A stretch of 64,000 bases of DNA from Escherichia coli. GTDB taxonomy: Bacteria; Pseudomonadota; Gammaproteobacteria; Enterobacterales; Enterobacteriaceae. Position 1 is the first letter of the stretch. Each line of letters starts with the position of its first letter. A program made the translations under genes and the position numbers. The notes under the pieces were generated by a model that saw only the letters and a list, made by a program, of their open reading frames with translations, made no database searches and was not told where the DNA came from. Of the stretch, positions 13,828 to 52,587 are shown in pieces. The stretch is taken from assembly GCF_013315695.1 (NCBI RefSeq), contig NZ_CP054353.1; one strand, given 5' to 3'.

Positions 13828-15372
13828 ATGGCTGACTCGCAACCCCTGTCCGGTACCCCGGAAGGTGCCGAATATTTAAGAGCGGTGCTGCGCGCGCCGG
13901 TCTACGAAGCGGCGCAGGTCACGCCGCTACAAAAAATGGAAAAGATCTCGTCTCGTCTTGATAACGTGATTCTGGTGAAACGCGAAGATCGCCAGCCAGT
14001 TCATAGCTTTAAGCTGCGCGGTGCATACGCCATGATGGCGGGCCTGACGGAAGAACAAAAAGCGCACGGCGTGATAACCGCTTCCGCGGGTAACCACGCG
14101 CAGGGCGTCGCGTTTTCTTCCGCACGGTTAGGCGTGAAGGCGCTGATCGTCATGCCAACCGCCACCGCCGATATCAAAGTTGATGCGGTGCGCGGCTTTG
14201 GCGGCGAAGTGTTGCTTCATGGCGCGAACTTTGACGAAGCAAAAGCGAAAGCGATCGAACTGTCACAGCAGCAGGGCTTCACCTGGGTGCCACCGTTCGA
14301 CCACCCGATGGTGATCGCCGGGCAAGGCACGCTGGCGCTGGAACTGCTCCAGCAGGATGCCCATCTTGACCGCGTGTTTGTGCCGGTCGGCGGCGGCGGT
14401 CTGGCGGCGGGTGTGGCGGTGCTGATCAAACAACTGATGCCGCAAATCAAAGTGATCGCCGTGGAAGCGGAAGACTCCGCCTGCCTGAAAGCAGCGCTGG
14501 ATGCGGGTCATCCCGTTGATTTGCCACGCGTGGGACTGTTCGCAGAAGGCGTTGCGGTAAAACGCATCGGCGACGAAACCTTCCGTTTATGCCAGGAGTA
14601 TCTCGACGACATCATCACCGTCGATAGTGATGCGATCTGTGCGGCGATGAAGGATTTATTCGAAGATGTGCGCGCGGTGGCGGAACCCTCTGGCGCGCTG
14701 GCGCTGGCGGGAATGAAAAAATACATCGCCCAGCACAACATTCGCGGCGAACGGCTGGCGCATATTCTTTCCGGTGCCAACGTGAACTTTCACGGTCTGC
14801 GCTACGTCTCGGAACGCTGCGAACTGGGCGAACAGCGTGAAGCGTTACTGGCGGTGACCATTCCGGAAGAAAAGGGCAGCTTCCTCAAATTCTGCCAACT
14901 GCTTGGCGGGCGTTCGGTCACCGAGTTCAACTACCGTTTTGCCGATGCCAAAAACGCCTGCATCTTTGTCGGCGTGCGCTTAAGCCGTGGCCTCGAAGAG
15001 CGCAAAGAAATTTTGCAGATGCTCAACGACGGTGGCTACAGCGTGGTTGATCTCTCCGACGACGAAATGGCGAAGCTGCATGTGCGCTATATGGTTGGCG
15101 GGCGTCCATCGCATCCGTTGCAGGAACGCCTCTACAGTTTCGAATTCCCGGAATCACCGGGCGCGCTGCTGCGCTTCCTCAACACGCTGGGTACGCACTG
15201 GAACATTTCTTTGTTCCATTATCGCAGCCACGGTACCGACTATGGGCGCGTACTGGCGGCGTTCGAGCTTGGCGATCATGAACCGGATTTTGAAACCCGG
15301 CTGAATGAACTGGGTTACGATTGCCACGACGAAACCCATAACCCGGCGTTCAGGTTCTTTTTGGCGGGTTAG
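13828..15372 (+). CDS. ilvA: Threonine deaminase (biosynthetic threonine dehydratase)
   Basis: 514-aa ORF. Confidence 0.96.
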   Translation: MADSQPLSGTPEGAEYLRAVLRAPVYEAAQVTPLQKMEKISSRLDNVILVKREDRQPVHSFKLRGAYAMMAGLTEEQKAHGVITASAGNHAQGVAFSSARLGVKALIVMPTATADIKVDAVRGFGGEVLLHGANFDEAKAKAIELSQQQGFTWVPPFDHPMVIAGQGTLALELLQQDAHLDRVFVPVGGGGLAAGVAVLIKQLMPQIKVIAVEAEDSACLKAALDAGHPVDLPRVGLFAEGVAVKRIGDETFRLCQEYLDDIITVDSDAICAAMKDLFEDVRAVAEPSGALALAGMKKYIAQHNIRGERLAHILSGANVNFHGLRYVSERCELGEQREALLAVTIPEEKGSFLKFCQLLGGRSVTEFNYRFADAKNACIFVGVRLSRGLEERKEILQMLNDGGYSVVDLSDDEMAKLHVRYMVGGRPSHPLQERLYSFEFPESPGALLRFLNTLGTHWNISLFHYRSHGTDYGRVLAAFELGDHEPDFETRLNELGYDCHDETHNPAFRFFLAG

Positions 15373-16259
15373 TGGTTCGGCAAAATCTTCCAGAACGCCT
15401 CAATCAGCGGCTCATGAAGCCGCTTTTTTTGTACGCACACGCCCAGCTCAAACGGCGTTTTCTCATCGCTACGCTCCAGAATCATTACGCGGTTGCGCAC
15501 GGGTTCCGGGCTGTTTTCCAGCACCACCTCTGGTAGCAGCGCCACGCCGCAGCCGAGCGCCACCATCGATACCATTGCTTCATGCCCGCCAACCGTGGCG
15601 TAAATCATTGGGTTGCTGATTTTGTTGCGTCGAAACCACAGTTCAATGCGGCGGCGTACCGGTCCCTGATCGGCCATGATAAACGGCACTGTAGACCAGT
15701 CGGGCTTTTCGACAGATACCTGATTACGCACCGGGCAGGGCAGCGCGGGAGCAATCAGCACCACCGCCAGATTCTCCAGCATCGAAAACGCCACTGCGCC
15801 CGGCAAGGTTTCCGGTTTCCCGGCAATCGCCAGATCCGCTTCGCCAGTGACGACCTTTTCCATCGCATCTGCCGCATCACCAGTCGTGAGTTTAATCTCC
15901 ACCGACGGGTGTTCCGCGCGGAAGCGATCGAGAATCGGCGGCAGATGGCTGTAGGCAGCGGTCACCGAGCAGAAGATATGTAATTCGCCAGAGAGCGACG
16001 GTCCTTGCTGATCGATGGTGTGGCGCAGCTGTTGATACTGCAACAGCGTTTGCTGGGCGAAAACGCGCAGTTCTTCGCCAGCTTCGGTTAGCGTTACCGT
16101 GCGGTTATCGCGCACAAACAGCGGCTGACCGAGATCGTCTTCCAGGCGCTGAATCTGCCGAGAGAGCGTGGACGGGCTAACGTGCATTGCCCGCGCGCTG
16201 CGGCCAAAATGGCGGCTTTCCGCCAGATGCAGGAAGGTTTTCAGATCGCGTAAATCCAA
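15369..16259 (-). CDS. ilvY: LysR-family regulator IlvY
   Basis: ORF 15369-16343; start placed at the TTG preceding [18 protein letters not shown] (no in-frame ATG nearby); convergent 4-nt overlap with the ilvA stop. Confidence 0.8.
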
Positions 16260-16408
16260 TGGCGCAGCCCTTAATGTTGACGTTGCAGAAATTGCAATGT
16301 GACGTTGTGAATATATCAATTTCCGCAATAAATTTCCTGTCATATAGTGAATTCAATCTCGCAAACGCGAACCGAACAATAAGAAGCACAACATCACGAG
16401 GAATCACC

Positions 16409-49654: not shown

Positions 49655-50040
49655 GCTTGTTACCGTCATTATCATCCGTGGTCCATCCTAACATCCTTGC
49701 CAGAGCGATGTCAGTGTTGTGGTGAAACGTAGACGCCTGCGCAAACCGTAAAATGAGGTCTGGCAGTGGATCCTGACAGGCGTTTCACGCCGTCGTAATA
49801 AGGAATTTACAGAGAATAAACGGTGCTACACTTGTATGTAGCGCATCTTTCTTTACGGTCAATCAGCAAGGTGTTAAATTGATCACGTTTTAGACCATTT
49901 TTTCGTCGTGAAACTAAAAAAACCAGGCGCGAAAAGTGGTAACGGTTACCTTTGACATACGAAATATCCCGAATGCCGCGTGTTACCGTTGATGTTGGCG
50001 GAATCACAGTCATGACGGGTAGCAAATCAGGCGATACGTC

Positions 50041-52587
50041 TTGTACCTCTATATTGAGACTCTGAAACAGAGACTGGATGCCATAAATCAATTGCGTGTG
50101 GATCGCGCGCTTGCTGCTATGGGGCCTGCATTACAACAGGTCTACAGTCTACTGCCGACATTGTTGCACTATCACCATCCGCTAATGCCGGGTTACCTTG
50201 ATGGTAACGTTCCCAAAGGCATTTGCCTTTACACGCCTGATGAAACTCAACGCCACTACCTGAACGAGCTTGAACTGTATCGTGGAATGTCAGTACAGGA
50301 TCCGCCGAAAGGTGAGCTTCCAATTACTGGTGTATACACCATGGGCAGCACCTCGTCCGTAGGGCAAAGTTGTTCCTCTGACCTGGATATCTGGGTCTGT
50401 CATCAATCCTGGCTCGATAGCGAAGAGCGCCAGTTACTACAACGTAAATGCAGCCTGCTGGAAAGCTGGGCCGCCTCGCTGGGTGTGGAAGTCAGCTTCT
50501 TCCTGATTGATGAAAATCGCTTCCGTCATAATGAAAGCGGCAGCCTGGGGGGCGAAGATTGTGGCTCCACCCAGCATATACTGCTGCTTGACGAATTTTA
50601 TCGTACCGCCGTGCGTCTCGCCGGTAAGCGTATTCTGTGGAATATGGTGCCGTGCGACGAAGAAGAGCATTACGACGACTATGTGATGACGCTTTACGCG
50701 CAGGGCGTGCTGACGCCAAATGAATGGCTGGATCTTGGTGGCTTAAGCTCACTTTCTGCTGAAGAGTACTTTGGTGCCAGCCTTTGGCAGCTCTACAAGA
50801 GTATCGATTCCCCGTACAAAGCGGTACTGAAAACACTGCTGCTGGAAGCCTATTCCTGGGAATACCCGAACCCACGACTGCTGGCGAAAGATATCAAACA
50901 GCGTTTGCACGATGGCGAGATTGTATCGTTTGGCCTCGATCCATACTGCATGATGCTGGAGCGTGTTACGGAATACCTGACGGCGATTGAAGATTTCACC
51001 CGTCTGGATTTAGTACGCCGCTGCTTCTATTTAAAAGTGTGCGAAAAACTCAGCCGCGAACGCGCCTGCGTAGGCTGGCGTCGTGAAGTGCTAACCCAGT
51101 TAGTGAAAGAGTGGGAATGGGACGATGCGCGTCTGGCAATGCTCGATAACCGCGCTAACTGGAAGATTGATCAGGTGCGTGAGGCGCACAACGAGCTGCT
51201 CGATGCAATGATGCAGAGCTACCGTAATTTGATCCGCTTTGCGCGTCGCAATAACCTTAGCGTCTCCGCCAGTCCGCAGGATATCGGCGTACTGACACGT
51301 AAGCTGTACGCCGCGTTTGAAGCATTGCCAGGTAAAGTGACGCTGGTAAACCCGCAGATTTCGCCCGATCTCTCGGAACCGAATCTGACCTTTATTTATG
51401 TGCCGCCGGGCCGGGCTAACCGTTCAGGTTGGTATCTGTATAACCGCGCGCCAAATATTGAGTCGATCATCAGCCATCAGCCGCTGGAATATAACCGTTA
51501 CCTGAATAAACTGGTGGCGTGGGCATGGTTTAACGGCCTGCTGACCTCGCGCACCCGCTTGTATATTAAAGGCAACGGCATTGTCGATTTGCCTAAGTTG
51601 CAGGAGATGGTCGCCGACGTGTCGCACCATTTCCCGCTGCGCCTGCCTGCACCGACGCCAAAAGCGCTCTACAGCCCATGTGAGATTCGCCATCTGGCGA
51701 TTATCGTTAACCTGGAATATGACCCGACAGCTGCGTTCCGCAATCAGGTGGTGCATTTTGATTTCCGTAAGCTGGACGTCTTCAGCTTTGGCGAGAATCA
51801 AAATTGCCTGGTAGGTAGCGTGGACCTGCTGTACCGCAACTCGTGGAACGAAGTGCGTACGTTGCACTTCAACGGCGAGCAGTCGATGATCGAAGCCCTG
51901 AAAACCATTCTCGGCAAAATGCATCAGGACGCCGCACCGCCAGATAGCGTGGAAGTCTTCTGTTATAGCCAGCATCTGCGCGGGTTAATCCGTACTCGCG
52001 TGCAGCAACTGGTTTCTGAGTGTATTGAACTGCGTCTTTCCAGCACCCGCCAGGAAACCGGGCGCTTCAAGGCGCTGCGCGTCTCCGGTCAAACCTGGGG
52101 CTTGTTCTTCGAACGGCTGAATGTATCGGTACAGAAACTGGAAAACGCCATCGAGTTTTATGGCGCTATTTCGCATAACAAACTGCACGGCCTGTCAGTG
52201 CAGGTTGAAACCAATCACGTCAAATTACCGGCGGTGGTGGATGGCTTTGCCAGCGAAGGGATCATCCAGTTCTTCTTCGAAGAAACGCAAGACGAGAATG
52301 GCTTTAATATCTACATTCTCGACGAAAGCAACCGGGTTGAGGTGTATCACCACTGCGAAGGCAGCAAAGAGGAGCTGGTGCGTGACGTCAGTCGCTTCTA
52401 CTCGTCATCGCACGACCGTTTTACCTACGGCTCAAGCTTCATCAACTTCAACCTGCCGCAGTTCTATCAGATTGTGAAGGTTGATGGTCGTGAACAGGTG
52501 ATTCCGTTCCGCACCAAATCGATTGGCAACATGCCGCCTGCCAATCAGGATCACGACACGCCGCTATTACAGCAGTATTTTTCGTGA
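50041..52587 (+). CDS. cyaA: Adenylate cyclase (class I)
   Basis: 848-aa ORF with TTG start ([23 protein letters not shown]...). Confidence 0.96.

Follow-up and report, generated by a model that had tools for sequence, protein, structure and literature searches.

GTG and TTG start codons of six genes in the ilv-rho-wec-cyaA region of an Escherichia coli chromosome

Where does translation begin in a stretch of the Escherichia coli chromosome in which several genes seem to lack an ATG start? The question is raised by a segment of 64,000 nucleotides of contig NZ_CP054353.1 (the window in what follows), for which a first-pass annotation, made from the letters alone, placed TTG starts at cyaA and ilvY and GTG starts at wecA, wecB, wecD and yifN, and shortened ten other genes relative to their longest open reading frame (ORF). 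At GUG and UUG the initiator fMet-tRNA in the 30S initiation complex pairs with a mismatch at the first position; the protein still starts with fMet, and the efficiency of initiation falls several-fold below that at AUG. We are confident that all six are ordinary E. coli genes with a correct annotation, translated from a GUG or UUG. The observation is already known: all six starts are present in RefSeq and in the K-12 reference, and the UUG of cyaA is a textbook case.

The six starts in sequence and annotation

The window is the chromosome segment rrnC-ilv-rep-rho-wec-cyaA-uvrD-corA. It shows 5 base differences from strain MSB1_4I (NZ_LR898874.1) across positions 370-64000, and its interval 15369-35369 is common, at 95% identity or more (megablast), to essentially all of 5,426 complete E. 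coli genomes. The gene order is rrnC, hdfR, maoP, yifB, ilvLXGMEDA, ilvY, ilvC, ppiC, yifN, rep, gppA, rhlB, trxA, rhoL and rho in the first half; after rho come the wec cluster, thrP, four tRNAs, aslBA, glmZ, hemYXDC, cyaA, cyaY, lptM and dapF, followed by yigA, xerC, yigB, uvrD, a gene disrupted by IS4, and corA.

Coordinates from the NCBI Prokaryotic Genome Annotation Pipeline (PGAP) were transferred to the window, and the start codons were then read off. Between positions 15369 and 52587 exactly six of the 31 annotated coding sequences (CDSs) begin with a codon other than ATG, and they are ilvY, yifN, wecA, wecB, wecD/rffC and cyaA: the placement of TTG at cyaA and ilvY and of GTG at the other four is thus borne out by PGAP, by the positions in K-12 and, as described below, by DNA from other species. 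All six starts have the same positions in PGAP and in the curated annotation of K-12 MG1655, and the codons are also identical there except for ilvY, which has GTG in K-12. Outside this interval PGAP gives further non-ATG starts in the window to hdfR (GTG), ysgD (TTG) and the IS4 transposase (TTG). The features at issue, with lengths in amino acids (aa) and Shine-Dalgarno (SD) elements, are as follows.

15369..16259, minus strand: ilvY CDS (296 aa); TTG at 16259-16257, SD-like UAAGGG at 16273-16268; in PGAP, and in K-12 at the same position as GTG
16300-16280, minus strand: IlvY operator O1, whose sequence is present in the window
18364..18813, minus strand: yifN, PemK/MazF superfamily (149 aa); GTG at 18813, strong SD UAAGGAGAGG at 18830-18821; in PGAP
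26270..27373, plus strand: wecA CDS (367 aa); GTG at 26270, weak SD-like GAGAG at 26257-26261; in PGAP and K-12
28487..29617, plus strand: wecB CDS (376 aa); GTG at 28487, conserved AAGAGA at 28475-28480; in PGAP and K-12
32821..33495, plus strand: wecD/rffC CDS (224 aa); GTG at 32821, SD GGAG at 32810-32813; in PGAP and K-12
50041-52587, plus strand: cyaA CDS (848 aa); TTG at 50041, conserved initiation region ATCAGGCGATACGTC at 50026-50040; in PGAP and K-12

Conservation of the start codons across genera

Since the PGAP and K-12 annotations are partly propagated by homology, and are thus not mutually independent, evidence at the level of DNA was sought in other species. With RhlB as the anchor and one genome per species scanned, we obtained 80 Enterobacterales loci of approximately 21 kb each, extending from ilvY through wecE and ranging from Escherichia albertii and Salmonella to Serratia, Erwinia, Pantoea, Pectobacterium and Brenneria; orthologues were located by tblastn, and the codon aligned to residue 1 of the E. 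coli protein was read. A codon competent for initiation was found at the aligned start of wecA in 72/72 loci, of wecB in 71/71, of ilvY in 57/57, of wecD in 45/70, of yifN in the 1/1 available, and of cyaA in 7/7 genera. An in-frame stop lies no more than 10 codons upstream of this position in 40/57 loci for ilvY, 41/72 for wecA and 39/71 for wecB, and longer proteins are therefore impossible in those loci. In the window itself there is no in-frame start codon between the annotated start and the upstream stop of wecA, wecB, wecD or cyaA.

The first-pass annotation stated that the starts had been placed by homology and by the position of the ribosome binding site (RBS). The RBS is indeed informative for yifN, wecD and ilvY, at which pairing to the anti-SD sequence is the best among the in-frame candidates (−9.1, −5.9 and −4.9 kcal/mol, respectively), but not for wecA (−2.7 kcal/mol), wecB and cyaA (−2.9 kcal/mol each), at which pairing is weak and no better than at internal candidates. 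The weak upstream elements of these three genes are nevertheless conserved (GAGAG in wecA, AAGAGA in wecB, CAGGCG in cyaA). Alignment and conservation thus fix the starts of wecA, wecB and cyaA, for which the RBS is not decisive.

For cyaA the comparison beyond E. coli included Salmonella, Klebsiella, Erwinia, Serratia, Edaphovirga and one more assembly. The start is TTG in all seven genera, with a conserved ATCAGGCG-N5/6-GTC ahead of it; similarity between genera vanishes approximately 17 nt upstream of the TTG, while downstream the differences fall mostly at third codon positions, and the nearest upstream in-frame stop is a TAG 7 codons away. Positions 2-198 of the Adenyl_cycl_N profile match residues 5-200 of CyaA, and in IlvY positions 1-60 of the Pfam HTH_1 profile fall on residues 3-62, a complete LysR N-terminus; in both proteins the N-terminal domain is intact only from the annotated start, which supports that start. 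A search of the PDB returned no entry for CyaA. The published UUG start of cyaA (PMC5499595) is in the same gene and at the same codon as TTG 50041, so that on this point the present result is a rediscovery with no difference from the earlier one; the same source reports conservation of the UUG in Enterobacterales and other gammaproteobacteria. As relayed there, Reddy et al. (1985) demonstrated the UUG start by mutagenesis, with expression from UUG, GUG and AUG in the ratio 1:2:6. That a weak initiation region holds translation low is established for cyaA.

The start of ilvY behaves differently. The aligned codon is ATG in 29, GTG in 27 and TTG in 1 of the 57 loci, and is never a non-start codon. 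According to PMC5002191, citing Wek and Hatfield 1988, the centre of operator O1 is at +17 relative to the transcription start site (TSS) of ilvY, which would put the TSS near 16306; if so, the upstream in-frame candidates ATG 16343, TTG 16328 and TTG 16319 would all be off the mRNA. The codon is polymorphic within E. coli as well: in an evenly spaced sample of 60 from 5,431 matches, 38 sequences (~63%) have TTG and 22 (~37%) the GTG form of K-12. Eight sampled E. coli sequences show mosaic ilvY variants confined to the start codon's first base and the ~30 nt upstream of it (TTG with UAAGGG, TTG with UGAGGG and GTG with CGAGGG are among the alleles), and, in a 271-bp alignment, 7 of the 10 differences from K-12 fall in 16 nt comprising the SD, the spacer and that first base (region 16257-16290, minus strand). 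Between genera, identity is 0.53 at positions −15 to −1 as compared with 0.75 further upstream. Of what lies between the operator-promoter region and the ilvY coding sequence, the variable stretch is the only part under poor constraint. The TTG of ilvY is thus an allele of the strain and not a constant of the species, and other genera have ATG or GTG. At its other end ilvY converges with ilvA, the two genes overlapping by 4 bp at 15369-15372; a 58-bp segment with a palindrome of the repetitive extragenic palindromic (REP) type, which separates ilvA and ilvY in K-12, is missing from the window, and IlvY has 296 aa (ending in PNH) as compared with 297 aa in K-12.

The start of wecD falls within rffH (31962-32843), 23 nt from its 3' end. 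Of 70 aligned codons 26 are GTG, 18 ATG and 1 TTG, and most of the other loci have a start codon 1-9 codons upstream; in many cases such a displaced start and the stop codon of the gene before it overlap. The crystallized forms of WecD (PDB 2FS5/2FT0) consist of a tag plus residues 2-224.

The yifN gene is intact in the window and a frameshifted pseudogene in K-12, with the same GTG in both. SD pairing at this codon is −9.1 kcal/mol vs −3.9 kcal/mol at GTG 18855, the start in the longest-ORF table. YifN belongs to a conserved family within the PemK superfamily, with proteins of ~150 aa in Enterobacterales, Pseudomonas, Aeromonas and Shewanella; fourteen of these homologues open with MAINF or MPINF, their first residue aligning with the GTG codon; Superficieibacter, the sole orthologous locus available as DNA, has ATG at the aligned start and a stop 7 codons upstream. 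The protein, to which PGAP gives the name of a type II toxin-antitoxin PemK/MazF toxin, contains a PF02452 PemK-like domain at residues 37-141 (E = 7.5e-11). ORFs of at least 20 aa between 18150 and 19060 were listed, with no family search, as places where an adjacent antitoxin might be encoded; on the yifN strand they comprise one of 21 aa (18236-18301) and one of 56 aa (18961-19131) that overlaps the start of rep.

The strictest conservation is seen in wecA and wecB, whose aligned codon is GTG in 72/72 loci (63 distinct contexts) and in 71/71 loci, respectively. The AAGAGA of wecB is at least 97% conserved, and the whole region AAGAGA-N6-GTGAAAGT (28475-28494 in the window) is nearly frozen across loci. 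In both genes the third base of the GTG is 100% conserved, as compared with a mean identity of 64-66% at the third base of codons 2-11; drift would be expected of a valine codon inside the gene but not of a start codon. In the same genomes the start codons of rffG, ilvY and wecD switch freely among ATG, GTG and TTG. The chains of the WecB structures 1F6D and 1VGV cover residues 1-376 and have the same N-terminus; the PDB has no entry for WecA. A conserved RNA structure behind the frozen starts was considered and rejected, as none involving the start codon emerged from RNAalifold or from single-sequence folds: RNAalifold gave no consensus pairs for the wecA initiation region, and for that of wecB nothing beyond a trivial helix of 3 bp, which lies in the coding region. 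As a separate observation, the wzzE-wecB spacer contains a GC-rich 11-bp hairpin (28442-28467; −31.5 kcal/mol and z = −4.9 for the folded region), which does not include the start codon. Hairpins of other sequence occupy the same place in Salmonella, Raoultella, Cedecea and Serratia; single-sequence folds of the spacer gave no clear hairpin in Erwinia, Mixta and Pectobacterium.

Longest open reading frames and other features of the window

The first-pass annotation had also warned that the starts in a mechanical table of longest ORFs are often wrong by tens of codons, and had trimmed ten genes. In all ten the table overshoots the annotated start, by 5 to 74 codons, and the trimmed starts agree with PGAP and with the K-12 reference; the size given for the error is true for only about half of these genes. 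Six of the ten lie in the range 15369-52587 to which the warning referred, while comM, ilvE, uvrD and corA lie outside it. The ten genes are listed here with the annotated start, the start in the ORF table and, in parentheses, the overshoot.

6944..8464, minus strand: comM/yifB; annotated ATG 8464, ORF table 8494 (+10 codons); SD pairing −11.9 kcal/mol at the annotated start
10981..11910, plus strand: ilvE; annotated ATG 10981, ORF table TTG 10915 (+22 codons)
16409..17884, plus strand: ilvC; annotated ATG 16409, ORF table TTG 16187 (+74 codons, through the 5' end of ilvY)
19031..21052, plus strand: rep; annotated ATG 19031, ORF table TTG 19016 (+5 codons)
24115..24444, plus strand: trxA; annotated ATG 24115, ORF table TTG 24010 (+35 codons)
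24771..26030, plus strand: rho; annotated ATG 24771, ORF table ATG 24699 (+24 codons)
41312..42547, plus strand: aslB; annotated ATG 41312, ORF table TTG 41282 (+10 codons); SD pairing −7.7 kcal/mol
48713..49654, minus strand: hemC; annotated ATG 49654, ORF table ATG 49675 (+7 codons)
56878..59040, plus strand: uvrD; annotated ATG 56878, ORF table TTG 56692 (+62 codons)
62652..63602, plus strand: corA; annotated ATG 62652, ORF table TTG 62637 (+5 codons)

Over the whole window the table overshoots the annotated start in 16 of 52 CDSs (about a third), with a median error of ~12 codons; the remaining cases are ilvY (28 codons), yifN (14), gppA (3), wzzE (1), dapF (1) and a hypothetical ORF (81). 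The longer ORFs would be frames that merely stay open upstream and are not used. The annotated ATG is kept in 58/58 Enterobacterales loci for ilvC, 71/71 for rep and 73/73 for rho, and rhlB, ppiC and wecE likewise have ATG at the aligned start in all loci (58-79 loci for each of the six genes). In trxA an Rfam match to the TrxA 5' untranslated region (UTR) thermometer (24045-24144) spans the annotated ATG, and numerous PDB chains of 108 aa correspond to residues 2-109. That coordinates from longest ORFs are unreliable is true but well known, and a curated or homology-aware annotation is preferable.

In hemC, SD pairing is −3.1 kcal/mol at the annotated ATG vs −6.0 and −6.4 kcal/mol at the in-frame ATGs upstream (49669 and 49675). 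Five other genera could be aligned at this gene (Klebsiella could not), and all five retain the annotated ATG; the upstream ATGs are missing from Erwinia, Serratia and Edaphovirga. A TAGGATG(G/T) motif, ~29-36 nt 5' of the hemC ATG, is common to E. coli and the five other aligned genera.

Some further features of the window were recorded. The ilvG gene is intact (548 aa, 9055-10701), unlike the frameshifted pseudogene of K-12, and a match to the Rfam family Rev39 5'UTR covers the ilvL leader/attenuator (8746-9035). The spacer that separates the glmZ terminator from the 3' end of hemY measures ~630 bp (44940-45575), vs ~45 bp in K-12; it carries an ORF of 118 aa in PGAP (44934-45290), 199 aa in its longest form, with no Pfam match. 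Between uvrD and corA a gene of the phosphodiester glycosidase family is interrupted by an IS4 element (60534-61880); the putative TTG start that PGAP assigns to the IS4 transposase lies six codons upstream of an ATG (MHIGQ...), and SD pairing is equally weak at both.

Alternative readings and relation to known start-codon use

The annotated starts have to be weighed against the possibility of an annotation artefact, according to which at least one of the six genes really starts upstream (ATG 16343 in ilvY, GTG 18855 in yifN) or at a downstream ATG, and the present call was propagated by homology pipelines. Several points weigh on this side: PGAP and K-12 are not independent witnesses, as already mentioned; the SD gives the starts of wecA, wecB and cyaA no advantage over internal candidates, at which pairing is equally weak; the comparative start positions are extrapolated from tblastn matches with the E. 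coli protein as the reference; and the position of the ilvY TSS is taken from a paper that cites the original work, a simple scan for consensus promoters between ilvY and ilvC having given no match. To these must be added that none of the six genes was found in the TRAINSPOTTER supplements (PMC13245402), by gene names, UniProt accessions and one peptide, or in the TetRP supplements (PMC4909307), by gene names and three b-numbers, and that these searches gave no N-terminal or initiation data for ilvY, yifN, wecA, wecB and wecD; the older names rfe and rffE were not tried in either set. An artefact is nonetheless highly improbable. In orthologues a stop is present in frame a short way (a few codons) upstream, and the upstream candidates of ilvY would lie outside the transcript defined by the literature TSS. 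Initiation at the first downstream in-frame ATG would remove conserved N-terminal sequence from IlvY (codon +24, inside the helix-turn-helix), WecB (+15) and CyaA (+26), and the first 40 codons of WecA and WecD contain no in-frame ATG at all. Moreover, conservation and codon periodicity set in exactly at the annotated codon, and the YifN homologues all begin at the GTG-encoded residue.

A less radical alternative is that the annotated starts are used together with a nearby in-frame candidate, such as the GTG 5 codons downstream in wecA, the GTG one codon upstream in wzzE, or the upstream ATGs of hemC. Alternative sites make up 14.6% of the start coordinates mapped in E. coli by TRAINSPOTTER (PMC13245402), and the SD pairing of the hemC upstream ATGs, better than that of the annotated ATG, points in the same direction; dual initiation is nevertheless unlikely, given that the candidate second starts are not conserved, codon +5 of wecA varying between genera and the hemC ATGs being absent from three of them. 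It could also be asked whether the six non-ATG starts are a regional feature, for example a co-ordinated low translation of the segment that makes such codons commoner there than by chance. The classical genome-wide share of non-ATG starts in E. coli is ~17-18%, and with a background of 18% the binomial probability of six or more among 31 is P(X>=6) = 0.49. Among 688 annotated E. coli starts verified by proteomics 91% are ATG, 7% GTG and 1.5% TTG (PMC13245402), and the observed 6/31 (19%) is above the corresponding background of 9%, with P(X>=6) = 0.055; this verified set is, however, biased to abundant proteins, which favour ATG. Three of the six genes belong to the wec operon, yet the six are spread over at least four unrelated transcription units. 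Six non-ATG starts among 31 genes are thus no significant excess over chance, and a regional feature is very unlikely.

We return, then, to six ordinary genes that start at GUG or UUG, and these can be compared with what is known of such starts. Within the general GUG/UUG class ilvY, yifN, wecA, wecB and wecD are ordinary members, with a purine-rich element 6-10 nt upstream; wecA and wecB differ from the general GUG class only in the strictness with which the GTG is retained. In their study of start-codon switching, Belinky et al. (PMC5622118) report weak selection towards AUG, the optimal codon, and conclude that it is maximal initiation which is selected for. The switching of ilvY, wecD and rffG among AUG, GUG and UUG is in line with that description, and the E. 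coli alleles of ilvY differ in the SD region as well. The opposite seems to hold for wecA and wecB, whose GTG never varies, and for cyaA with its unvarying TTG, as though a codon short of the optimum were being retained. Another conserved start other than AUG is that of infC, whose AUU is a regulatory device by which the gene is autoregulated through initiation factor 3 (IF3; PMC5499595); the genes studied here differ in using the common near-cognate codons GUG and UUG, without a known autoregulatory factor.

These results can be read in terms of two kinds of behaviour. In ilvY, wecD and rffG the position of the start is fixed while the codon drifts among ATG, GTG and TTG, as though its identity were nearly neutral. 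In cyaA, wecA and wecB the combination of a non-AUG codon, a weak SD and conservation across genera may instead set a low, fixed rate of translation. For wecA and wecB it is conceivable, though we put it forward only tentatively, that throughout Enterobacterales the GTG and the weak purine-rich elements ahead of it are actively held below the optimum, and would then act as a conserved dose limiter in the early synthesis of enterobacterial common antigen (ECA). That limiting expression is the purpose of these weak initiation regions is something we infer from their conservation, and this counts as a further reservation. The ECA review PMC7439462 has nothing on start codons or promoters, and PMC5499595 makes no mention of the invariant GTG of wecA and wecB. 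As a small side observation, this invariant GTG appears to be a mild exception to start-codon switching; together with the TTG of cyaA, likewise constant in every genus sampled, it hints at selection for limited translation of these enzymes. If so, the identity of the start codon in wecA and wecB would act like the UUG of cyaA, as an exception to the general trend towards AUG.

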